From a virus (taxonomy: Duplodnaviria > Heunggongvirae > Uroviricota > Caudoviricetes): a stretch of 36,584 bases of DNA. Positions 2,621 to 35,138 of this stretch are shown piece after piece; the first letter of the stretch is position 1, and every line of letters starts with the position of its first letter. The DNA lies in IMG/VR virus record IMGVR_UViG_2718218304_000003, one strand, 5' to 3'. The notes below the pieces were generated by a model. It was not told the origin of the DNA. It did not search any database and saw only the letters and a program-made list of their open reading frames with translations. Both the position numbers and the translations under genes were made by a program.

Positions 2621-2732
2621 AACTGAAGTTGCCCTGAAAATGAAATTTTTTTGCACAACCGCAGAACTTTTCCGCAGGGCATCAGTCTTAATTAGTGCCA
2701 CTGCTTTTCTTTGATGTCCCCATTTTGTGGAG

Positions 2733-2775
2733 CCCATCAACCCCGCCATTTCGGTTCAAGGTTGATGGGTTTTTT
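2733..2775 (+). terminator. intrinsic terminator in host/prophage junction
   Basis: Perfect 10-bp stem CCCATCAACC / GGTTGATGGG (2733-2742 / 2760-2769), 17-nt loop, T6 run at 2770-2775. Confidence 0.5.
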
Positions 2776-2855
2776 GTTGTCTGAAATTTATGCCGTTTAA
2801 AATCATGATGTTAGAAGCACTGTTTTTTAACGATGGCGACAAAATGGCGGCAGCG

Positions 2856-3074
2856 TCAAAGAGAGAGCGCCACCTGTCCTGATTTCATTGGATGCGGCTG
2901 AACCGGATTTGACTCTTTTGGCGTTGCAATCGAACGAACAAAAGTTTCATGGGTAACAAAAGTATGGCTGCAGTTAATGTTCTGGCACTGGTTGTAACGC
3001 TCTTTGGTCAATGAAGATACCTGAAAACTGCTGCGAGTATGGGCGGCACTTCCACACAGTGGGCAAATCATCAT
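2856..3074 (-). CDS. ogr: late-gene transcriptional activator, Ogr/B family zinc finger
   Basis: C-x2-C...C-x4-C motif (CPLCG...CQNINC); start moved to internal Met (MICPLCG) giving 72 aa, the Ogr length; sits next to gene D as in P2/186. Confidence 0.8.
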   Translation of the reverse strand: MMICPLCGSAAHTRSSFQVSSLTKERYNQCQNINCSHTFVTHETFVRSIATPKESNPVQPHPMKSGQVALSL

Positions 3075-3164
3075 TTTTCGAGTTCTCCCCATTTTTGCTA
3101 AATTCACAATAATGATACCGCATTATTCCATTTTGCAAACTTAAAAGTTCTCCATTGCGAAGAA

Positions 3165-10144: not shown

Positions 10145-10711
10145 TCAGGGGGATTCATTGCTCTTATTTGCCGGAAATTTTCTATAAATTGTGGAAACAC
10201 CCACATCAAAAATCAGTGCAATACGCTGTCTTGATTCTCCGGCCTCGAGTAAACGTCCAATCTGTGCCCACTTTTCGGTGGTCAACTTAGGACGGCGTCC
10301 ACCTACTCTGCCTTTAGCACGAGCTGCAGCCAGCCCCGCCCTGGTACGTTCAACTATCAGTTCGCGTTCCATTTCAGCCAGGGCCCCCATGACATGAAAA
10401 AAGAAACGGCCCATTGGGGTGCTGGTATCAATACTGTCAGTCAGGCTTCGGAAATTCACGCCACGCTGGCGCAGCTCTTCTATCAGCGTAACGAGATGCC
10501 GCATACTGCGCCCCAACCTGTCCAGCTTCCAGACAACCAGAGTGTCACCTGCCGATAATGTCCTGAGCAGTTTTTTCAGTCCCGGTCTGTCGGACTTAGT
10601 GCCACTGATTTTGTCCTCAAAAATCCGCTCACATCCCGCGCAGTTCAGTGCATTACGTTGCAAATCGGTGTTCTGGTCATTTGTTGACACGCGTACATAG
10701 CCAATAAGCAT
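10145..10711 (-). CDS. site-specific DNA invertase, serine recombinase (Gin/Cin/Pin/Hin family)
   Basis: N-terminal catalytic motif GYVRVSTNDQ and near-collinear match to Gin/Pin (VVWKLDRLGRSM, SPMGRFFFHVMGALAEMERELI); start moved to MLIGYV. Confidence 0.9.
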   Translation of the reverse strand: MLIGYVRVSTNDQNTDLQRNALNCAGCERIFEDKISGTKSDRPGLKKLLRTLSAGDTLVVWKLDRLGRSMRHLVTLIEELRQRGVNFRSLTDSIDTSTPMGRFFFHVMGALAEMERELIVERTRAGLAAARAKGRVGGRRPKLTTEKWAQIGRLLEAGESRQRIALIFDVGVSTIYRKFPANKSNESP

Positions 10712-10766
10712 GATCAATCCCCTGAATAAAAACCGGGGATGATGCCAGTTAGCTGTTACCTCTGCA

Positions 10767-10792
10767 TTTTCTTAAACGTTGGTTTGGGAGAA
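10767..10792. other. invertase crossover site (left inverted repeat)
   Basis: TTTTCTTAAACG-TT-GGTTTGGGAGAA; its 12-bp right half is the exact reverse complement of the left half of the site at 12297-12322; 12-2-12 layout as in gix/cix/hix. Confidence 0.6.
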
Positions 10793-11146
10793 GCGGCAAA
10801 ACGAAATGTGGGTAACGAGCAAAACCAAATTCCGGATATGGCGGCGTTTGCCAGTTCACTTTCATCAACGGGTTTTCAAAAACTCCCTTCAGGTCTGATT
10901 ATTCAGTGGGGTATAGTCAGTGGAGCATCAAACTATACGGTGACTTACCCGGTAACATTCCCAAATCGTTCACTTGCGCTGTTGGCTGTACCACATACAA
11001 CGTCGGTGGCGGGTATATCTGCAATGGGCATAGCGAACTGTTCTGATATCAGCAAATCACAGTTCTATATAATTGTTGGCGGTATATCTCAGGGAGAAAT
11101 TGTCAAATATGAAAGATCCTGTTTTTGGGTAGCAATCGGTGTATAG
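10781..11146 (+). CDS. silent alternative tail-fibre C-terminal segment (Sv'-like), expressed only after inversion
   Basis: Open frame runs through the crossover site (..GLGE..) and ends ..IAIGV like the current H C-terminus; shares LIIQWG with it; no own start expected. Confidence 0.55.
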   Translation, partial: GLGEAAKRNVGNEQNQIPDMAAFASSLSSTGFQKLPSGLIIQWGIVSGASNYTVTYPVTFPNRSLALLAVPHTTSVAGISAMGIANCSDISKSQFYIIVGGISQGEIVKYERSCFWVAIGV

Positions 11147-11154
11147 GTATATCT

Positions 11155-11550
11155 ATGATTTATTTCTCAAAATCGACTAATGGTTTTTTCTTCGATGGTA
11201 TAAACAGTGACATGCCTGCTGACATTGTTGAGATATGTACAGACTTATACAATGAATTAATTGCCGGACAGCAGGAAGGGGGTAAATTAATTACGTCAGA
11301 TGAAAATGGTTTACCGGTACTAAAATCCCCGGCGATTGATTATGTCGCACGTGCGGAAAATCAGCGAATGCAGTTACTTGCTCATGCCGATAATGTCACA
11401 GCTGACTGGCGAGTGGAATTAATGCTTGGTGATATCAGCAGTACAGATAAAGAAAAACTATCCGCCTGGATGGACTACAAAAAAGAAGTAAAAGCCGTCG
11501 ACACTTCGACGGCTCCTGAGATTAGCTGGCCTGAGTTACCGGAGGTGTAG
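11155..11550 (+). CDS. tail fibre assembly protein (U'-like, for the alternative fibre)
   Basis: Follows the alternative fibre end; C-terminus (DTSTAPEISWPELPEV) parallels the oppositely oriented chaperone; start moved to internal Met. Confidence 0.7.
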   Translation: MIYFSKSTNGFFFDGINSDMPADIVEICTDLYNELIAGQQEGGKLITSDENGLPVLKSPAIDYVARAENQRMQLLAHADNVTADWRVELMLGDISSTDKEKLSAWMDYKKEVKAVDTSTAPEISWPELPEV

Positions 11551-11959
11551 GCCATTCAATATCTGGAGCACTGGAGGTATCCACCAGTTCCAGTGCGTCC
11601 AGGTAATCCAGCCACAAATTATATAGTGCCAGTTCCTCACCTTTCAGACGACCAATAGCTGCTTTGCCAGGCCATTGCTTACTGTTCATGTATTCGTTGG
11701 CCTGATTAAGCAATAATTGCCTTTCTGTTTCTGCCTGTTGAATAAGTTCTTCATGTGATGGTGGAGGTATTAGTGCCCATGTGGGTAATCCATTTTTTCC
11801 TGCAACACGAATTTTGTCATCTGGGGGCGTATTGATTGCAAATTCATTATAAACATCATCACTGACAGCCAGAGCATCATCTGGCCATGAATTTGCATTA
11901 ATGTAATCATCCTTAAGCGCAGGATTCACAAAAATGTTTAAAGATGGACTATAAAACAT
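11522..11959 (-). CDS. tail fibre assembly protein (G/U-like)
   Basis: 145 aa immediately downstream of H; C-terminus (DTSSAPDIEWPTPP) typical of this chaperone family. Confidence 0.75.
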   Translation of the reverse strand: MFYSPSLNIFVNPALKDDYINANSWPDDALAVSDDVYNEFAINTPPDDKIRVAGKNGLPTWALIPPPSHEELIQQAETERQLLLNQANEYMNSKQWPGKAAIGRLKGEELALYNLWLDYLDALELVDTSSAPDIEWPTPPVTQAS

Positions 11960-24635: not shown

Positions 24636-25691
24636 TTAAAAATTATTTTCTTCAATAGAGAACTCAATCCCTCGGGATAACTTATCAATATTCACATCAA
24701 ATGCGATATCTGTTAATTCACCATCCTCGATTTCATACATAACTTCAATTTCAATATCGAAACTAATCTCTTGAACTTCAGTTCGTGTGGTTGTCTCCAT
24801 TGGAATCATTACTTTATCTTCGCTATCCCAATACCCATTATTAAAGTCTGGACCAGAAACAGTAACTTCAAAATCTACAGAAACAGAGAAGGTCGCTAGA
24901 CAATAATTATTGTCAATCTTAATTATTGATGGTTCAAAGTCATCAATATTGACGACTTCAAATGAATCCAATTCAGCGTCTTCCCAAGTTGAAACGTTAT
25001 ATCCATCGGCATCATTGAGTTGGGCAATTACGTCCGCTCTTATGTCTTCACGTTTGCTTTCGATAAACTGCATCAATTTATTACTTAATTCGTTTGTATG
25101 CGTATTGTATTCACCTAGAAACTTATCAAGTGAATCAATTTGATGAAGATTGTTTTTACCATCACAATAATTTTTTAAGTCACTATCCTCAGAAATGATA
25201 TACACATCTTCATCATTAACAAATCGCTCTACCGCAGCTAAAGTGATTGCATCAGGAAACTCACTTTTTTTCTTATTTTGCCCAAATGGTGGTTCTTTGC
25301 CAAAGTATTTATCTAAAACCTCATTAAGATCTATCACTTCTATTGTAGCTAATTTGGCGTGACATCCTTTCAAAAAATCATCAAAAACTTTTTGTGCTGC
25401 TTCGTGAATTTCATGTTCGTTAAATTGCTGAAAAAAACCATGGAGCGGTCCATTATCAATACTATTCAAAAGCCTAGCTTTTCTTTGTACTGTGTTTATA
25501 GCCTGCAGAGCATCCTTTATTGATTCCTCTATTTTACCTTTTACTTCTCTCTCTACAACTGTAGTTGTAATTAAGACTAAATCACCTTTCGCACATAATT
25601 CATGGAAAGCTTTAAATGCTACCCCCTCAAAATGAAGACCAGCCTTTACGTACGTTTGTGTGTCAATAAATACCTTATTTGTTTTAAGCAT
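24636..25691 (-). CDS. PIN-like domain protein with acidic C-terminal domain; candidate accessory/defence gene
   Basis: 351 aa; SD AGGA before ATG; N-terminus has PIN-style motifs (VFIDT ... VVERE ... IISEDSDL); C-terminal ~150 aa very acidic; AT-rich gene. Confidence 0.7.
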   Translation of the reverse strand: MLKTNKVFIDTQTYVKAGLHFEGVAFKAFHELCAKGDLVLITTTVVEREVKGKIEESIKDALQAINTVQRKARLLNSIDNGPLHGFFQQFNEHEIHEAAQKVFDDFLKGCHAKLATIEVIDLNEVLDKYFGKEPPFGQNKKKSEFPDAITLAAVERFVNDEDVYIISEDSDLKNYCDGKNNLHQIDSLDKFLGEYNTHTNELSNKLMQFIESKREDIRADVIAQLNDADGYNVSTWEDAELDSFEVVNIDDFEPSIIKIDNNYCLATFSVSVDFEVTVSGPDFNNGYWDSEDKVMIPMETTTRTEVQEISFDIEIEVMYEIEDGELTDIAFDVNIDKLSRGIEFSIEENNF

Positions 25692-25810
25692 ACTAATCCT
25701 AATAAGTTTTAAGATCCGCTACAATTGTTTATGTTTATTTTTTATCAATAATCATACGTAGTTAAGATTATCCATGTCGAAAAATTAAATCAACTTCAAT
25801 TTATCCTTAA

Positions 25811-25845
25811 GCGCGCGCTCGTATCCCCGCCACGCCTGCCCGCTT
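25811..25845. other. possible cos (cohesive end) region
   Basis: GC-rich block whose reverse complement reads GGCGTGGCGGGGA, resembling the P2/186 cohesive-end sequence as I recall it; expected between old/tin-equivalent genes and Q. Confidence 0.3.
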
Positions 25846-25881
25846 TATGTAGTGGTTTTCATGCAGGTGCATGACATAAGC

Positions 25882-25905
25882 AAAAGCCCGCCAGTTCTGG
25901 CGGGC
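25882..25905 (-). terminator. putative terminator after the two-gene accessory operon
   Basis: Stem GCCCGCC / GGCGGGC (25886-25892 / 25899-25905) followed on the minus strand by UUUU (25882-25885). Confidence 0.4.
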
Positions 25906-26050
25906 CTCAGCAAAAACGATCCTAAAACGATCATGCGGATTCATGCAGCATAGACATGCAAAGCTTGTTAGAACGGTGATTCCCATGTTAAAGGAGGCTT
26001 ACTCTTGTTGAGGTTAAACATCCACAGTAACTCCTGCCAATACGAACACT

Positions 26051-26587
26051 TTATTCATCATAGTGTTCTAATTTCGCTTTTGCTAAACGTCCATGTAAGT
26101 GATTAACAAAATGTAAATTATTCAAAATCAGGCTCATAACGCATTTTAATTGCATCCAGCTAATAAAGTAAATGAAGAAAATACCAATGTATTTAAACAA
26201 GTCTTTATTAGCTTGATAAACAGGTAATGCATAAAACACTGCCTTAACCAAAAAGAAAATTAGAATCCCAGCCATAACACAAGCAGATGTGATTATTGTA
26301 TAAACTAATTTCTCTATTCTTGGTGAGTCATGCTCATTTTTTATATAACTTACATCATCCTTAACAATACTATTCATTGCATTCGGATATAAAAAACCGA
26401 CCCATAAACCGACAATAGTGAATATAGATGCTGAAATATTTATAAGCGCACCTAAAATATCTTTTGCATCATTATAGGAAAAACTTTTGAACGAAAAATA
26501 GCTTATAACGCAGCACAAAACAACAGCAACAAAATTAATCGCCTGCTGTTTTGCAACTGTTATTATCAAACCTTCCGTTTCTGTCAT
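26051..26587 (-). CDS. 4-TM membrane protein, second gene of candidate accessory/defence operon
   Basis: 178 aa with four hydrophobic helices; ATG 1 nt after the stop of the upstream gene; SD GGAAGG inside upstream gene. Confidence 0.75.
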   Translation of the reverse strand: MTETEGLIITVAKQQAINFVAVVLCCVISYFSFKSFSYNDAKDILGALINISASIFTIVGLWVGFLYPNAMNSIVKDDVSYIKNEHDSPRIEKLVYTIITSACVMAGILIFFLVKAVFYALPVYQANKDLFKYIGIFFIYFISWMQLKCVMSLILNNLHFVNHLHGRLAKAKLEHYDE

Positions 26588-26588
26588 A

Positions 26589-27788
26589 TCAACCTTCCGC
26601 TATCTTTTTTGTGGATGCAGCTTCAGATTCTTTAATGGATGCTTCCTCAGCATATTTTACTTCACTAATCAAATCATCACGAATTTTGTTTATTTCATCC
26701 AGTAAAAAACGCGCTGAATAATGCTCAACCCCATCCGAATCTTGAAGAGGAAGTTTAGTCCTGGCTACATAGCTACTGAGCCAAACCGGATTAGCACGAT
26801 CAGCCAGTAAAAAACCCACATCCCATTCAGACTCTTCACCTCTCATTGAGAAGAGATTTCGAAGCTCATCCGATGATGGTGCACCGTCAATTTTAACTTC
26901 AATTTTACGAGGCTGCTCCAAAACAGGAGGTGCCCCAATAAGCTTATTACGCTTTTCTTCACCCACCAGAGATGCTAAAGCTACACTTGTTAGCTTCAAC
27001 AATGGTTGCCTTGTGTCATTTTGGTTTATTACCGTTGTATCCTTTATCAATGTGTGTGTAATTTTATGCCTTAACCTTTCAAAGTTTTCCTCAGCGGCTT
27101 TAAGTTTTGTTTCTTCCAATACAAACTTGAAGATACAGTTTATCTCATTTTTGCCATCTTTATATTGAAACTTAGTATTGTAGACATCCACACAACGACC
27201 AGGGGTCTTAGCTGATTCAAATGTACGCTTAGATTTCGTTCTTTTACCTAACTTACTATTATTATTTACATGCTGAATGAAGTATTGTGCGAAGAGATAA
27301 GTATCAGCGAAAGAATGGGGGAATCTGATTGATGCTATTTTATTCAACTCAGGAATAATCCAGTAATAGCAGGGTTCACCCCAAATTATTTTATCCTCAC
27401 CATGTTCTCTTCCCGCCCTAATGGTTCCTTTACTATCACCACTTACTTTAGAACCGACCTTAATACCATGTATTCCGTTACCGTTCCCCACTTCACGGTA
27501 TAAAACAATTACTGCATCTTTAGTCTGGCTGTCCCTCACAAGGCCTCGACTGTAAACTCGTGTTCGCAGAGGTTGTTCTTCTTTATTCCATGGGAGAGTC
27601 TGCTCAAAATTTTTATCCTTGAGCCACCCTTCTAAATCGTCCAAAACCCCCATAAGATCGCCGAATTTATAATCAAGCTCTTCGGGTTTATTCTTTAAAC
27701 GATAAAACCCACAAGCAGTAATATCAAAGAAGGTGATTGAGCCGTTGTCCACTAAAACTCCTTTTTGCCAAAGCAACACACGATACAT
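26589..27788 (-). CDS. unknown soluble protein, first gene of candidate accessory/defence operon
   Basis: 399-aa ORF, AT-rich, no family I can name; R-x4-H motif (RHKITH); translationally coupled to the membrane gene. Confidence 0.7.
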   Translation of the reverse strand: MYRVLLWQKGVLVDNGSITFFDITACGFYRLKNKPEELDYKFGDLMGVLDDLEGWLKDKNFEQTLPWNKEEQPLRTRVYSRGLVRDSQTKDAVIVLYREVGNGNGIHGIKVGSKVSGDSKGTIRAGREHGEDKIIWGEPCYYWIIPELNKIASIRFPHSFADTYLFAQYFIQHVNNNSKLGKRTKSKRTFESAKTPGRCVDVYNTKFQYKDGKNEINCIFKFVLEETKLKAAEENFERLRHKITHTLIKDTTVINQNDTRQPLLKLTSVALASLVGEEKRNKLIGAPPVLEQPRKIEVKIDGAPSSDELRNLFSMRGEESEWDVGFLLADRANPVWLSSYVARTKLPLQDSDGVEHYSARFLLDEINKIRDDLISEVKYAEEASIKESEAASTKKIAEG

Positions 27789-27955
27789 TTTTCACGTATA
27801 CCATCAGAATCGTCCCTAAACTTCAAGTTACTTATGATAATCAAGAAAGCTGTCGAATGTTGTTGCATAGGCCAAAGTTTCAGGGGAACAAGGCATTCTT
27901 AAATCACTTTTCACTACCCGTTTCTAACGCCTCACGCGGCTCGTTGTTCAACCTT

Positions 27956-27986
27956 GCGGACGATAAAAACCAGTTTTATCGTCCGC
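27956..27986 (-). terminator. strong hairpin after the DinI-like gene
   Basis: 13-bp perfect stem GCGGACGATAAAA / TTTTATCGTCCGC with 5-nt loop, 9 nt downstream of the DinI-like stop. Confidence 0.4.
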
Positions 27987-27994
27987 AACGTTCG

Positions 27995-28228
27995 CTAGTG
28001 TAACCAGCTGTCGTCCTCCCAGACCTTCTGCATAATTTTCATCACTTGTTTTCTTTCTTCGTCCAGTTGCAGTCCGGTCAGTTCCACACCGTTAGAGCTA
28101 CCTTTGCGGATACGAATTACCGTTTTGGGATACAGGGGGCGCAGATTGCGGTAAAGCTCGGATTCAAGGGCGTCCAGTGTAGACTGGCTAATCTTCTGCT
28201 CTTTATCGATCATTATTTCAATGCGCAT
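27995..28228 (-). CDS. DinI-like protein (SOS-inducible; Tum-type antirepressor candidate)
   Basis: DinI-family similarity (MRIEI.IDK, LY.KTVIRIRKGSSNGVELTGL, ER, KIMQKVWEDD.W); start moved to MRIEI, preceded by SD GAGGTGA. Confidence 0.75.
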   Translation of the reverse strand: MRIEIMIDKEQKISQSTLDALESELYRNLRPLYPKTVIRIRKGSSNGVELTGLQLDEERKQVMKIMQKVWEDDSWLH

Positions 28229-28238
28229 AAAAGTCACC

Positions 28239-28427
28239 TCAGCTGATGACATCCATTGAGCGGTTGTATTCATGGGTTCTGATTTTTGCCATGAGTTCAT
28301 CTGTCAGTTCAGAAACCCACTGCAGGGCCAGCCCCTTCTCTTCATCACTACACTCACTAGCCGCTACAAGCTTAAGAAAAAAATCAATGCGCTGGAGCTT
28401 CAAAGACTCCAAAAAATAGTCCTGCAT
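28239..28427 (-). CDS. small protein, first gene of LexA-controlled operon
   Basis: 62-aa ORF with strong SD (GGAGGA) directly downstream of the LexA box; stop 10 nt before the DinI-like start. Confidence 0.5.
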   Translation of the reverse strand: MQDYFLESLKLQRIDFFLKLVAASECSDEEKGLALQWVSELTDELMAKIRTHEYNRSMDVIS

Positions 28428-28588: not shown

Positions 28589-30961
28589 TTAATACAGATC
28601 CCGCCACTTATCATCTTCCTGCAAACGCTGGTTCCGATAGAAGATACGCAGGCCTGCTCCTGACGGAATACTGCCACCGCGAAGGAGTAAATCGACCTCT
28701 TTCTCGCTGCCATCAAATCCTCTGGACTTCAGTTCATAGACGAGCTGCTGTCGCTGATGATCTGTAATTCGCTGTTTGTAGTCTCTACGCCGTTTCGGTT
28801 TCACCAGGCGTAACCTTGCAGCCAGTTCCCGGCGCTCTTTTTTGTTCATACTGTGCAGGTAATCGTGCAATTCCTTGTCATCCATGCGGGTGATATCCGT
28901 TCTGGTATCCCCATCAGCTGATTTGTCTTTCCCTTGTTGGTACAAATTTTCAGCAAGGGGACAGTTATTGCCACGAGTCCAAGGGGCGCAAGCGCCCTGG
29001 TCGGCTGCCGCCTCCTGAACATCAACGGCCTTACGAACCATTTTCCACTTCACGGCATGAGTGCAGATCTTGCCCTCTGCAATAGGTGACCAGATGCCAT
29101 AAATACGAATGCCGTGATCGCCATAGGCGGTCGGCTCTTCGTTGATTTCATAAGCGGTTCTGATGAGGTGATATTTGCGGGGAACCAGTACGCCGCCCTG
29201 CTTCATGATGTAGGTGGCAAAACAACCAGCATCAGCAGCAGCCAGGATGGCATCAAGGCGCGGGTTATCCAGTACCGGCGCACCTGCTTTTTTGTCCCCC
29301 TGTTGCCTTGCCGCCTGACCAGCCAGCAATCGCAGTTCACGGTAAGCCTGACGCCCCGGAATGCCAAAGAAGCGGAATTGCTGAACACGATGCAGAGACG
29401 CCCAGGCATTAACGTATTCAGCATTATCACGCAGGGATTTCCCCGTTTCCTTGCTGATCTCGCCAGCCAGACCACGCCCGTCAATGTTCTTACTGATGTA
29501 TTTCGCGATGTAGCTTGTTGGCGTACCTTTGCGCGGGTTAATCAACTCAGACTTAAAGCGCGGCCCAGTGTTATTGCCCAGTTCCTCGCGGTCTTCACGG
29601 ATGGCAAACTTACGCAGTAATGCAGTGATGGCGCGGCGGTCTTTTTTGCGCATAAAACACAACAGGTGCCAGTGAACTGTACCGTCATGATGCGGCTCAG
29701 CCACCCGCACGCCATACCACCGCAATCCGGCTTTGTGCATCGCCTTACGAAATGCAGCAAACATGCCGACCAGATAATCACTGCTTTGTCTTACCGTCGC
29801 ATTTGTCCAAGTTGGGTTGGGCCTGCCATTATTTAGCGTGGAATGGAAACGTGACGGACAGGTGATGGTGTAGAAAACGGCGCAGTCACCGCGCATTTCC
29901 GCGATAAGCTCCAGGCCTTTAACACAGGCCATCATCTCATTGCGGCGATGCGCAGGGTTGCTGCTGCTGGCGTTTACCACATCCTCCATGTCCAGCGTGT
30001 CGCCGTCTTCGTTCACCAGTTCATGAGAACGAAAAAACTCCAGCGACTTACGGCGCTGCTCGCGTTTATGCATCACGGCTTCATAGCTGACATAGGGAGA
30101 TGCTTTTTTGCTGACCAGGCAGACAGCACGCAACTGCTCTTCCCGCCATTCACAACGCATCTTCCATAATTTCCGGTACCACCAGTCAGCGCACAACATA
30201 CGCGCCAGCGAACCCGGAATGAGTTCATAGGGCACGGGTTTACGGCGGTTTCTTTTCCGGCGGAGTTGCTCAAACGCAGGCGGGATGACATCCAGACGCA
30301 GGGTTTCCGCTGCCACCTTTTCCCATGTCTTGCGGATTTCTTCTGGCTTAACGTCATCGGTGACATACAAATCGCCACAAGCTGCATCAAGGCACATGCT
30401 CATATGCGCAGCTACCAGGGTGGACAGGCGTTTCACCTGATCCTGACTCATTTCAGGCAGGATCAGCAGGCCGTCCAGCCCTTCATGGCTTGCCATAAAG
30501 CGAAAAGAAGTGGATAGCTGACAGTCGCGTACATGCTCCAGCCGTTCCAGACATGGCTTAATCGTTTCACGCAAATAGCGGGAATAAGCCTTTGGCCTGC
30601 CCAGGCTGCTGAAGTATTCAATACGTTGCATCAGTGGCTTGCTGATATGGGAAGGCTGGGCATTGACGTCCGCCAGAATGACCATATCTGGATTAAAACG
30701 CTGCTGCTCATGCGCCAGCTTTGCCCGACTAATGAGCTTATCCTGCTCCATTTCGCGCTGGACAGGATCACGGGATTCATTAAAGAAATAACGCTCCCAG
30801 ACCTGATCACTCAGTGCCTCGCGGCGCAGCTGTTCCTGCTCGTTATCGGCAGCGTACAGAGCGATCAGGTTTGAAAGCGCAGAAACTGAAGATTGCTCTT
30901 CTGTCTCTACGTAAGGATTGATTGCTTTTTTCTCAGCATTCCAGGAATAGCTGTAGTTCAT
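28589..30961 (-). CDS. A: replication initiation endonuclease gpA (rolling-circle)
   Basis: Conserved P2 A motifs [12 protein letters not shown] and [12 protein letters not shown]; start moved to the ATG whose A is shared with the upstream TAA stop, giving 790 aa. Confidence 0.9.
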
Positions 30962-31791
30962 TACGCAATCTCCAGTTCGAGCTGTGAAGGCTGCAAACCA
31001 TTCGACAGCCAATCAGAAACTGAAGGTGGGCGAACAGCTTCAATTGCACCTTTTAAAATTGCGCAACGGTTTTTCAGAATGACAGCTTTCAGCTCCTTTT
31101 CCGTCAGATTGCGCGAATACTCAGCCTCCTGAATAGCCCGCGTCAGCTCAGGATATTTGCTATTAAATTTGGGGACATTGCAGGCAAGATTTGTACTGTC
31201 GGCAGTCGCCAGTGGGTAATTTCCCAACACACGACCGTCAAGCATGCGCAAACCATGAACAGCTGTTTTGAAATTGTGTCGGCAATAAATTGCTTCAAAA
31301 GCGTCCTGCATACGACGATGCCAGTGCGCAGTTCTGATAGCCGCATATTCACCAGACGATCCAAAGCAGACACGAGGCCATTCACGACATAGCTCGATAA
31401 GCCGATCGATTGACTCGTGCAGATGCCAGACGGGAGTTGCCTTCCCGTAGAACATTTTCGGAACTTCGTTTATCAGGGCATCATTGTCACGTTCACCTCC
31501 GTCCACAACATCAGGAATGACAAAAAAAGCGACCTTAGGATGGTGGTAATAGTTCAGGAGCCATTTATAAAAATCACTCCAGTTAATTTTTAGCCCACGC
31601 ACCCATGCAGAAAATGCGCCGTTATCAATGCCGACGACCTGAGCGTGCTGAATGGACGCCGCAATCTGATCTGGTCGTACATAGGAGACGAAAGCGCCAG
31701 CTCCGCTCACCGCAATACGATGAACGTCGCCAGCACTTCCCCAGACAGGCGTCCCATGGAAATGATGAATTCCGTGGTGCATTTCTTTCAC
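30961..31791 (-). CDS. hypothetical protein coupled between dam and A
   Basis: 276-aa ORF (GTG at 31791 or ATG at 31782); overlaps dam stop and A start; no family recognised. Confidence 0.65.
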
Positions 31792-32642
31792 ACTTGCACC
31801 CCGAAAATAACAGTAGAGTCACGTCCCCTACTAAAATCGGCACTAAACCAATTAGCAGATTTAGTGGCAATCATCTCTGTTGCAAATTTTCCCTCCCCCG
31901 CTGCAACGCCGATGCTGCGTTTCGCCCTGATGTAGTGGTGAGTGAAATTACGATAAAGGGACCGGGTCAAAGACGTGTTACTGTTAGAAACAATGACCGG
32001 ATGTCCTTCTGATGACCGATGTTCAAGAATGGATGCCAGGTGATACTGATCATCTTCAGTGAAACCATCAGTGTGATAGCCGGAAAACGTACCGTCATAA
32101 GGCGGATCGCAATACACCACATCCCCCACCTTCAACATCGCCAGCGTTTCATCAAAGCTGGCGCAGATAAACGTTGCCCGCTGGGCTTTCTCTGCAAATG
32201 CGCGAATTTCTTTTTCAGGGAAATACGGATTTTTATAATTACCGTAGGGAATGTTGAAATGCCCGCTCTTGTTATAGCGACATAAACCACGGTAACCGTG
32301 ACGATTGAGATACAGGAAATATACCGCTTTCATGAAATCAGTAATTTCAGTGGAGTAATTAAACTCCTGCCTTATGTTGTAATAAGCCACCTCCCTGTTT
32401 GCTTCCTCAAATAAAGCTCTGGCACGAGATATAAACGCCTCACAATCAGCAGCAACCTTTTTATAGAGGTTGATTAAATCAGGATTAATATCCGCAACAA
32501 GATAGCTGGGGTAATCCGTCTCCATCATCACTGCACAGGAACCCGCGAAAGGTTCAACCAGTCGCGGGCCAGCAGGAAGATGCTTTTTCAGTTCGGACAT
32601 TATGGCGGTTTTATTTCCTGCCCATTTCAGGATGGTGCTCAT
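31788..32642 (-). CDS. dam: DNA adenine methyltransferase (Dam family)
   Basis: LKWAGNK, EPFAGS and DPPY motifs; collinear with E. coli Dam; start moved to internal Met preceded by SD GGAGGTG, overlapping upstream stop (ATGA). Confidence 0.9.
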
Positions 32643-32866
32643 ACAGCACCTCCGTTGTAATGTTTGCCTTTCAGCTCTGCGATTTCCTGACAGGTAATGC
32701 AAAGCTGCACACCCGGAATGGCACGGCGGCGTGCTGGCGGAATTGGCGCTTCACACTCAACGCAAAGCACGCGGGACACGCCCGGCGTTTTGGCACGGGC
32801 AGCACGGATATGGCGTTGGCGTTCTTCTTCAACGCGCTGCTGTACGAGATCCATTGCATCAGCCAT
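32639..32866 (-). CDS. TraR/DksA-family C4 zinc-finger protein
   Basis: 75 aa with CVEC...CITC four-cysteine finger. Confidence 0.7.
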   Translation of the reverse strand: MADAMDLVQQRVEEERQRHIRAARAKTPGVSRVLCVECEAPIPPARRRAIPGVQLCITCQEIAELKGKHYNGGAV

Positions 32867-33679: not shown

Positions 33680-34189
33680 TCACAGCAAACCGAATGAAGC
33701 ACCGAGGCCAGTCACGGTATCAACTGCACTCGCCATCGCAGGATTAGCCTGTAAACGGGCCTGCAATGAAACAGCAGCCAGCGCCATCAGTCGTGTAACA
33801 GAGTTAATGCTGCTGATCGCATCACGACGGCCTGCACTGGTTTTTACATCGCCAGAAACCGCACCTGCCGCGACACGCCCTATCTCTGCAGTTGCACTCA
33901 TGACGTAATGCGGCAGTTTCTCTTTTGCCACCTCATTAATCGGTACACATGGCAGGCAGTGAATCTGTGCCAGAAAGCCATCTACCAGCGTTGAATCTTC
34001 AGTCAGATCGGTAAGCAACCAGATTTCTGGTGCGGTTAATAAATGAGGTTGAGCTGGGTTCAGCTTGTTCCGCAGAATCTGCACATTCATGCCTGCACGT
34101 TCTGCCAGTTGCACTAGGTTGTGGCGCAATGCGAATGCACGACAGGCTTCATCAAAATGTGGATGTTTGGAAACTTGGTAATCAAACAT
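33680..34189 (-). CDS. cII: CII-like transcriptional activator (phage 186 type)
   Basis: 169 aa from [11 protein letters not shown], matching my recollection of 186 CII length and N-terminus; follows apl. Confidence 0.65.
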
Positions 34190-34221
34190 GGTCAATGCCT
34201 CTGATGTATTTCAGAATCGAA

Positions 34222-34443
34222 CTAATTAAGGTTTAGATTGCATTCTGAAAGCGCATCAACGGTCATGGCTGCTATGTTGATCATCACTTTTTCACGTTTT
34301 TTATCTTTGCGCAGACGGTGACGGATAAGGCGTCCGTCAGCCAACATGTCATTGATGGTATCGATGGACAGCCCTGTCAGCTCGCTATAGCGTTCAATAG
34401 TCACATGAGGCGTGGTAAGAGTGATTGAAATGTTAGGTCTCAT
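34222..34443 (-). CDS. apl: Apl/Cox-like excisionase and switch regulator
   Basis: 73-aa basic protein, first gene of the early operon, divergent from cI. Confidence 0.55.
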
Positions 34444-34568
34444 GATGCAACATTCCTCGTTTAATGATGATTAATCAGGACGAATACGGATCGTTTGTAT
34501 TTTGTGAACACCATAAACATACGATCGCACAGTGAAATCGTCAAGATAAAAGTTCACTTGGAGTGACC
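34444..34568. promoter_or_regulatory. lysis-lysogeny switch region
   Basis: 125-bp divergent intergenic region between apl and cI with repeated GTGAA/TTCAC motifs; operators not resolved. Confidence 0.4.
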
Positions 34569-35138
34569 ATGAATTTGGAGAAAGGCGGACGAGGCGCTAT
34601 AGAGCGCATGGTAGAAGCTTATGGATTCAAAACTCGACAGGCGTTGTGCGATCATTTAGGAATCTCTAAAAGTACACTCGCCACACGCTACATGCGTGAC
34701 TCATTCCCAGCAGAATGGGTAATCCAGTGCGCCCTTGAAACGGGCACCTCGCTTAATTGGCTCACAACCGGACATGGTTCAAAGCAAACTTCAGGTAATA
34801 CAAATACTATGGAAGTTGCTAAATATGTATTATCTGATGGTGCCTTGCGTGAAGACGGTTTTTATATTTTTGATAAGGGATTTCTACCCTCTACGTTTAA
34901 AAAACCTTTTGTCATCACAGATAACAATTCTGAATTTATTTGTGATAAAGAATTTGATGATATACGTGACGGTAAATGGGTAATAAGTATTGATGGCGAA
35001 ATAACAATCCGCGACATTACTCGTTTACCCGGTGGAAGAATCTTCGTTGAAGGTGGAAACAGAGCCTTCGAGTGCAAGATAGAAGATGTTGAAATAATTG
35101 GGAAAATTATAAGTTTAACAATTAAGTACGTTAGGTAA
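34569..35138 (+). CDS. cI: CI-like immunity repressor (phage 186 type)
   Basis: 189 aa from ATG preceded by SD GGAG (ORF track starts at GTG 34563); N-terminal HTH-like domain; length close to 186 CI; AT-rich C-terminal half. Confidence 0.7.
   Translation: MNLEKGGRGAIERMVEAYGFKTRQALCDHLGISKSTLATRYMRDSFPAEWVIQCALETGTSLNWLTTGHGSKQTSGNTNTMEVAKYVLSDGALREDGFYIFDKGFLPSTFKKPFVITDNNSEFICDKEFDDIRDGKWVISIDGEITIRDITRLPGGRIFVEGGNRAFECKIEDVEIIGKIISLTIKYVR

Follow-up and report, generated by a model that had tools for sequence, protein, structure and literature searches.

A solitary Dam-family methyltransferase gene coupled to a predicted DpdA-like gene in the early operon of a P2/186-like prophage of Escherichia coli

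The early lytic operon of the prophage described here carries dam (31788–32642, minus strand), a solitary gene for a Dam-family (D12 class, alpha-group) N6-adenine DNA methyltransferase of 284 aa with predicted specificity for GATC. Directly downstream lies a gene for a DpdA-like guanine transglycosylase (30961–31791, minus strand), which would be expected to place a 7-deazaguanine base, either preQ0 or a derivative of it, in DNA. The whole stretch of DNA analyzed, 36.6 kb long and hereafter called the window, consists of a complete P2/186-like (Peduoviridae) prophage and a short host flank. Our preferred explanation, which we hold with a probability of about 70%, is that dam encodes a GATC-methylating enzyme that would be produced only in the lytic cycle, would protect virion DNA, and would be paired with the DpdA-like enzyme.

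The prophage, its dam gene and the relatives of dam

The window starts with the host genes grxA, ybjM, and ybjL and the small RNA gene rybB (2700–2778; 105 bits), RybB being the sole match in an Rfam search of the window. After this flank the prophage begins with ogr (2856–3107) and continues through the tail, lysis, capsid, and terminase genes, a cargo region (24636–28300), gene A, the early operon, and the CI gene to the stop of the integrase gene. The cargo comprises a gene for a PIN_12 protein, a two-gene candidate defense system (PDC-M18 A/B), and a DinI-like gene. The prophage adjoins rybB/ybjL in E. coli, and the stretch that contains dam and its downstream neighbor (30900–32700) shows 100% identity to chromosomal sequence of E. 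coli D9 and several other strains; because the D9 gene map agrees with the window throughout, we regard E. coli as the host. GATC occurs 120 times in the window versus 166 expected (ratio, 0.72), a mild under-representation that resembles that of other palindromes and is uninformative either way.

The dam gene extends from an ATG at 32642, which is preceded by the Shine-Dalgarno sequence GGAGGTG, to a stop codon at 31790–31788. A longer open reading frame from a TTG at 32702 was rejected as a mechanical artefact, and the ATG was preferred on account of the Shine-Dalgarno sequence, the overlap with the upstream stop codon, and the start used in RefSeq. The protein was examined for the catalytic motif IV (D/N)PP(Y/F), the AdoMet-binding FxGxG, and the N-terminal KWAGxK, and all three are present, with ILKWAGNK (residues 4–11), VEPFAGS (29–35), and CDPPYDG (178–184) intact. 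It matched the Pfam family PF02086 over the complete profile (1–253 of 253; E = 2e-76; 257.5 bits, cut-off 22) and the NCBIfam "dam" subfamily TIGR00571 (318.4 bits, cut-off 114.85), and its best PADLOC model was the orphan methyltransferase PDLC03729 (6e-110). The score against the host-Dam equivalog NF008152, at 288.3 bits, fell below the cut-off of 441, which places the protein in a phage lineage of the Dam family distinct from the chromosomal dam orthologue. Comparison with E. coli Dam (EcoDam; PDB 2G1P) gave E = 4e-73 and 48% identity over 255 aligned residues, with residues 4–260 of the phage protein aligned to 7–267 of the 278-aa host enzyme. The two proteins have the D12-class fold, motif order, DPPY, and AdoMet motif in common; unlike EcoDam, the phage enzyme is slightly extended at its C terminus, is encoded by a phage, and appears to be under lytic-cycle control. 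The first-pass annotation had reported a full-length Dam homologue at these positions with the motifs LKWAGNK, EPFAGS, and DPPY, and the reading frame, the motifs, and the full length all proved to be real.

The exact protein is already deposited as RefSeq WP_000104146.1, "DNA adenine methylase", with the same start. It is found on at least 1,000 public contigs, and its named records almost all read DNA adenine methylase or Dam-family methyltransferase, one JGI record having "hypothetical protein" instead. A megablast search with the gene detected this allele family in 1,238 of 5,426 complete E. coli genomes, and a TraR/DksA gene adjoins dam in all 12 of the matches listed. The order TraR-Dam-A also occurs at the E. 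coli loci L006 and L007, in Klebsiella phages 4LV2017 and ST15-OXA48phi14.1, in Salmonella RE-2010 and SEN8, and in SopEΦ, whose orf8 product is 75% identical to the window Dam and is annotated as "similar to retron EC67 DNA adenine methylase". These retron-Ec67 and 186-like, Fels-2-like Dams (SopEΦ orf8, RE-2010, SEN8, and 4LV2017) belong to the same family as the window Dam and have 284–285 aa; as in the window, their genes lie in a slot with the TraR/DksA zinc-finger gene on one side and gene A on the other, and the stop codon overlaps the next gene. The 4LV2017 Dam is approximately 93% identical to the window Dam over the first 255 residues, whereas the last ~25 residues of the window Dam have diverged from its relatives, at a recombination joint. 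A Dam methylase function encoded by the retron-Ec67 element was reportedly described by Hsu et al. in 1990. The dam gene is therefore an ordinary, already annotated member of a lineage recognized since the retron-Ec67 work, and it is not new.

Between four dam alleles, namely those of the window, two E. coli prophages, and Klebsiella phage 4LV2017, dN/dS was 0.12–0.43. The differences are mostly synonymous, and all motifs are kept in each allele. The gene is under purifying selection, and its function is maintained.

The early operon and the DpdA-like gene

The dam gene occupies the seventh position in the early lytic operon, which reads on the minus strand Apl/Cox, CII, Fil, DUF5347, DUF2732, TraR/DksA, Dam, DpdA-like, and gpA. 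The operon opens with an apl/cox-like excisionase-repressor gene (34222–34443; phrog_575, 6.1e-31) and a cII-like lysogeny activator gene (33680–34195; PF06892, 3.4e-42), and it diverges from the gene for a 186-type CI immunity repressor on the plus strand (34563–35138; PF07022, 2.8e-33; PF16452, 2e-28). The genes that flank dam are the DpdA-like gene and a gene for a TraR/DksA-type C4 zinc-finger protein (32639–32866, minus strand; PF01258, 4.4e-11). The stop codon of the latter overlaps the dam ATG (ATGA), the junction of dam with the DpdA-like gene reads GTGA, and the DpdA-like gene overlaps gene A by one base (TAATG, with the ATG of A at 30961). Gene A (28589–30961, minus strand) encodes the rolling-circle replication endonuclease (PF05840, 1.3e-127; "replication endonuclease" in RefSeq). 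A location in the early operon with no partner restriction gene in view had been claimed for dam from the start, and the present data extend the second part of that claim to the whole prophage: all annotated genes of the identical D9 prophage are accounted for, and no restriction-modification endonuclease is found among them. The product of dam is thus a solitary (orphan) Dam-family methyltransferase and not part of a Type II restriction-modification system.

A pR-like early promoter, TTGACG-17-TATGTT (34516–34544, minus strand), lies upstream of apl/cox, which puts dam ~1.9 kb into the operon. No other sigma-70-like promoter was found on the minus strand between 28300 and 35200 in a scan that is crude (four sites versus 9.3 in shuffled sequence), and terminator and promoter hits within the operon were at or below shuffle expectation, so no internal signals were drawn. 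According to the annotation of phage 186, the homologous pR is repressed by CI and drives the early lytic operon, and A is translated only if ribosomes read the gene upstream of it to its end. Given that no promoter of its own was found, the overlapping starts and stops, and the CI-repressed operon of phage 186, dam is probably silent in the lysogen. This architecture, together with the precedent of phage 186, suggests that Dam is co-produced with the replication protein once the prophage is induced or a cell is infected.

What sets the window apart from the other members of this group is the DpdA-like gene, which separates dam from A. The DpdA-like gene encodes 276 aa if translation begins at a GTG at 31791, which gives a 4-nt overlap with dam, or 273 aa from the RefSeq start, an ATG at 31782, which leaves a 5-nt gap. 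The protein matched the PHROG family phrog_887, "queuine tRNA-ribosyltransferase" (2.4e-96), and tblastn against phages showed 75% identity to gp38 of SEN1, a P2-like phage of Salmonella, and 55% identity to a locus of Pantoea phage MED16 annotated as "putative queuine tRNA-ribosyltransferase". [quoted passage not shown] A fold search returned a TIM-barrel most similar to TGT/DpdA structures. Searches of Pfam and NCBIfam gave no match to the protein, nor did a PDB sequence search with the protein and a 48-member profile; its identification came only through PHROGs, the phage tblastn, and the fold search. Among 48 homologues, D53 (in DNGAF57), D91, D182, and D195 are invariant, and the order and spacing of D53, D91, and D195 fit, in a sequence-level comparison, those of the catalytic residues D95/F99, D130, and D256 of Salmonella DpdA, which are in turn the general acid/base with its Phe four positions further on, the base-binding Asp, and the nucleophile. 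The structural CxCx2C...H zinc site known from bacterial DpdA and TGT, which bacterial DpdA carries in the large Ins8 insertion, is absent from the 276-aa sequence, as is the insertion itself, and we therefore filed the protein as phage DpdA-like and not as an orthologue of bacterial DpdA.

On these features we assign the protein to the phage "DpdA-only" group as a putative DpdA-like transglycosylase; the group includes Salmonella phage 7-11, Pantoea phage MED16, and Salmonella phages SEN1/SW9. MED16 carries an adenine methylase as well as DpdA, as the window prophage does, whereas SEN1 has dpdA without dam. No preQ0 synthesis genes are present in the phage, which implies supply by the host, and dpdA-only phages have been proposed to use host preQ0 (PMC6884629). 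In the slot just upstream of A, phage 186 has an exonuclease-like gene, a DUF5405 gene, and a PAPS-reductase-like gene. In the window, homology to the common dam-A arrangement stops at approximately 31876, within the last 30 codons of dam. This break inside dam, together with the SEN1 arrangement, indicates that dam and dpdA are independent modules that share a variable slot upstream of A, and in the window prophage they are predicted to form a two-enzyme DNA-modification cassette. In the cases measured, lone DpdA homologues produce very low modification, amounting to 0.13% of G in MED16 and 0.02% of G in phage 7-11 (PMC6884629, PMC8306585), so that the protective value of the cassette is uncertain. 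The DpdA-like gene was found in 103 of 5,426 E. coli genomes, including that of ATCC 8739, and on at least 1,000 public contigs; it is labeled "hypothetical" in every record read.

Role of the phage Dam and the GATC in the early promoter

In our preferred explanation, dam encodes an active solitary methyltransferase that would act most probably on the adenine of GATC. Once CI repression is lifted, the pR-like promoter would give rise to a long early lytic RNA that includes dam, which would otherwise not be transcribed, and translation would be coupled along TraR/DksA, dam, dpdA, and A. Dam would then be made with the replication initiator and would act on freshly replicated phage DNA, and this DNA would be fully GATC-methylated before packaging without depending on the limited Dam of the host. 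The DpdA-type enzyme would be expected to exchange some guanines for 7-deazaguanine from the host queuosine pathway, and the two genes would constitute a small modification cassette in a non-essential slot. The benefit that we infer is that virion DNA would be shielded from restriction once it enters the next host, and a further likely benefit is escape from the effects of hemimethylated or unmethylated GATC, such as MutH nicking and SeqA binding. E. coli has its own Dam, which already methylates GATC, and the idea that a second GATC methylase confers a benefit is hence an argument rather than an observation. Of the roles that the first-pass annotation had listed for orphan Dam enzymes, anti-restriction and regulation are reasonable, whereas packaging finds no support, since P2-like phages are cos-type and not pac-type as P1 is.

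The expectation of GATC as the target derives from the DNA contacts of EcoDam, where base pair one is read by K9 and Y138, base pair three is contacted by L122 and P134, the guanine of base pair four is contacted by R124, and Y119 serves as the intercalating residue (PMC4417163). The phage Dam retains these six (K9, Y119, L122, R124, P134, and Y138) of the eight DNA-contact residues checked and differs from EcoDam at two positions (N120→R and R137→N), of which N120 belongs with the six to a set of seven GATC-reading residues and R137 is a further position. GATC is the most likely target on this comparison, with some room for altered fidelity, and a relaxed or shifted specificity is possible. 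An enzyme of relaxed or extended specificity would methylate adenines outside GATC and give wider anti-restriction cover than host Dam. Such adenine methylases of phages and plasmids are known (PMC5778455), and the two substitutions, the invariance of R118 in four of the four phage alleles examined, and the score of 288 bits against a host-Dam equivalog cut-off of 441 are consistent with this idea. However, R124, L122, P134, K9, and Y138, which discriminate GATC, are all conserved, and the related retron-Ec67 enzyme was reportedly described simply as a Dam methylase; we consider relaxed specificity quite improbable. The timing of expression bears on another suggestion of the first-pass annotation, namely that the enzyme may alter host GATC methylation in lysogens. 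The data do not support it, because dam sits deep in a CI-repressed operon with overlapping starts and stops and no promoter-like site of its own, and because the host Dam would leave little unmethylated GATC to be altered. A weak internal promoter may exist, and changes of this kind are reported for some prophage methyltransferases of other species (PMC12435837). In E. coli EC958, however, prophage methyltransferases, one of which is a predicted Dam homologue located on another prophage, were silent by RT-PCR (PMC4659465), and expression of dam in the lysogen with an effect on the host methylome or gene expression appears to us highly improbable. EC958 serves here as a general precedent only: M.EcoMIV, the silent Dam homologue of that strain, was not found in the EC958 region examined, where only host genes and the terminal part of a Mu-like prophage are present, and an equation of the window Dam with M.EcoMIV as direct evidence was dropped.

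A different function would be regulation of the phage's own lysis-lysogeny switch. A GATC at 34523–34526 occupies positions -17 to -14 of the pR-like promoter (the -10 hexamer being taken as -12 to -7), and a second GATC lies ~34 bp downstream of it at 34489–34492. The methylation state of the first site (full, hemi, or none) might alter the binding of RNA polymerase, CI, or SeqA, and Dam produced from pR would then feed back on pR or set the state of pR in packaged DNA. We surveyed the best promoter upstream of apl in 160 related IMG/VR loci, collected via two CII proteins, and in ten annotated phages, with a promoter caller that recovers the experimentally annotated pR of phage 186. A GATC at exactly -17 was found in about nine immunity types whose spacers are in other respects unrelated, comprising the window type (30 of 30 loci), the L007 type (17 of 17), and the types L026, L029, L059, L065, L077/RE-2010, SEN8/MLG42, and ST15-OXA48phi14.1; four dam-less types have GATC at -16. 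Across 28 promoter types, eight of the 12 GATCs within 117 positions fall at -17 or -16, and the site is present in six of eight dam-carrying types versus four of 21 dam-less types (Fisher p = 0.009). All -17 types, however, have homologous CI repressors (35–59% identity), so that the site may be an inherited operator core, perhaps unrelated to methylation, and shared ancestry confounds its association with dam. Close variants, moreover, lose the site by single changes yet keep dam (GAACC in 4LV2017/L032 and GATTG in SopEΦ), and the dam-less MLG42 and PSP3/SEN1 type keep the site, for which host Dam would suffice.

Dam-sensitive promoters include IS10 pIN, P1 cre, Mu mom, and the SeqA-stimulated lambda pR. 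The resemblance lies in a core-promoter GATC in a mobile element that needs or encodes Dam; unlike in those promoters, the GATC of the 186-like pR is in the spacer, at -17 to -14. Dam methylation is reported to affect the excision of several Salmonella prophages (review, PMC7380047), and a literature search found no paper with an experiment that ties a 186-like pR to Dam. A link between the Dam-dependent excision of SopEΦ and a promoter GATC was rejected, as SopEΦ has GATTG there. We regard the promoter GATC as a lead for Dam-dependent regulation, a cheap hypothesis and not a result, and control of the switch as the main role of the methylase seems to us unlikely. Distinctly less likely still is the fuller scheme, in which the pR GATC would make the Fels-2/186-like switch Dam-sensitive and the phage Dam would close an epigenetic loop, possibly with 7-deazaguanine insertion by DpdA.

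Implications for P2/186-like prophages

The Dam homologue to which attention was first drawn adds nothing new in itself, being a named RefSeq protein that roughly one in four complete E. coli genomes carries. The DpdA-type gene next to dam and the conserved GATC in the promoter they share were overlooked in the first-pass annotation. The new points are a DpdA-like gene that is coupled to dam and publicly labeled "hypothetical", and a position-specific GATC in the promoter that drives both. The presence of the DpdA-like gene in a genetically tractable E. coli prophage, including that of ATCC 8739, offers an easy system for the study of a lone phage DpdA, and opens the questions of how such an enzyme uses host preQ0 and whether it cooperates with Dam. 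The promoter GATC, for its part, allows a cheap and direct test of whether Dam tunes the switch in a common prophage group. If a Dam-sensitive pR loop were true, the methylase would be a component of the switch and not merely an anti-restriction accessory.

The DpdA-like gene beside dam

Directly downstream of dam, on the minus strand, lies a gene (30961-31791) that is predicted to encode a DpdA-like 7-deazaguanine DNA transglycosylase, and this gene is translationally coupled to the replication gene A. The DpdA-like protein had no match in Pfam or NCBIfam, and all public records that were read label it as hypothetical. We found the gene in 103 of the 5,426 complete E. coli genomes, with ATCC 8739 among the carriers. 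In one public assembly, a called gene of 421 aa (P0011) carries a Dam Pfam domain and matches the DpdA-like protein at 100% identity across 84% of that protein. This apparent Dam-DpdA fusion is probably an artefact, either of a frameshift or of gene calling, at the junction where dam and the dpdA-like gene overlap.

GATC sites and a variable patch at the early promoter

The early promoter pR (34516-34544, minus strand), which drives the operon holding both genes, is associated with GATC sites at 34523-34526 and 34489-34492. The pR GATC occupies positions -17 to -14, an offset that was unchanged in about nine heteroimmune relatives (among the related prophage and phage loci L007-L177), and 8 of 12 GATCs were located at -17 or -16 in a comparison of 28 promoter types. 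The early promoter may be Dam-responsive, or the GATC may instead be the core of a conserved operator. Just upstream of CGATCG in the pR spacer, a patch of 5 nt (about 34527-34532) differed among alleles of the window's immunity type, as compared in the window and loci L013, L016, L025, L027, L031, L033, L038, L042, and L048. Variants such as CTGTG, ATGTG, TAGTA, TGATG, TTGAG, TTGCG, and TTATG were included, and the sequence on either side was identical across the same alleles. The patch is a tiny hypervariable stretch, which possibly reflects operator or immunity drift.

Variable and accessory regions of the prophage

At 10145-11959, a Hin/Gin-type serine invertase gene adjoins alternative tail-fibre tip and tail-fibre-assembly genes in opposite orientations, an arrangement that looks like an invertible host-range switch. 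The RybB sRNA gene (2700-2778, plus strand) immediately adjoins the prophage end, which is marked by ogr at 2856, and rybB or the sequence beside it seems to hold the attachment site. A cargo hotspot (24636-28300, minus strand), flanked by the portal gene and gene A, carries a gene for a PIN_12-domain protein (351 aa), the PDC-M18 A/B pair (399 and 178 aa), which is a candidate anti-phage system, and a DinI/Tum-like gene.

On the other side of gene A, the slot that dam and dpdA occupy in the window is filled in phage 186 (L168, 3391-5248) by three different genes: one is exonuclease-like, one is a DUF5405 gene, and the third, orf84, is PAPS-reductase-like. Upstream of gene A there is therefore a general accessory slot, which often houses DNA-metabolism or DNA-modification genes.
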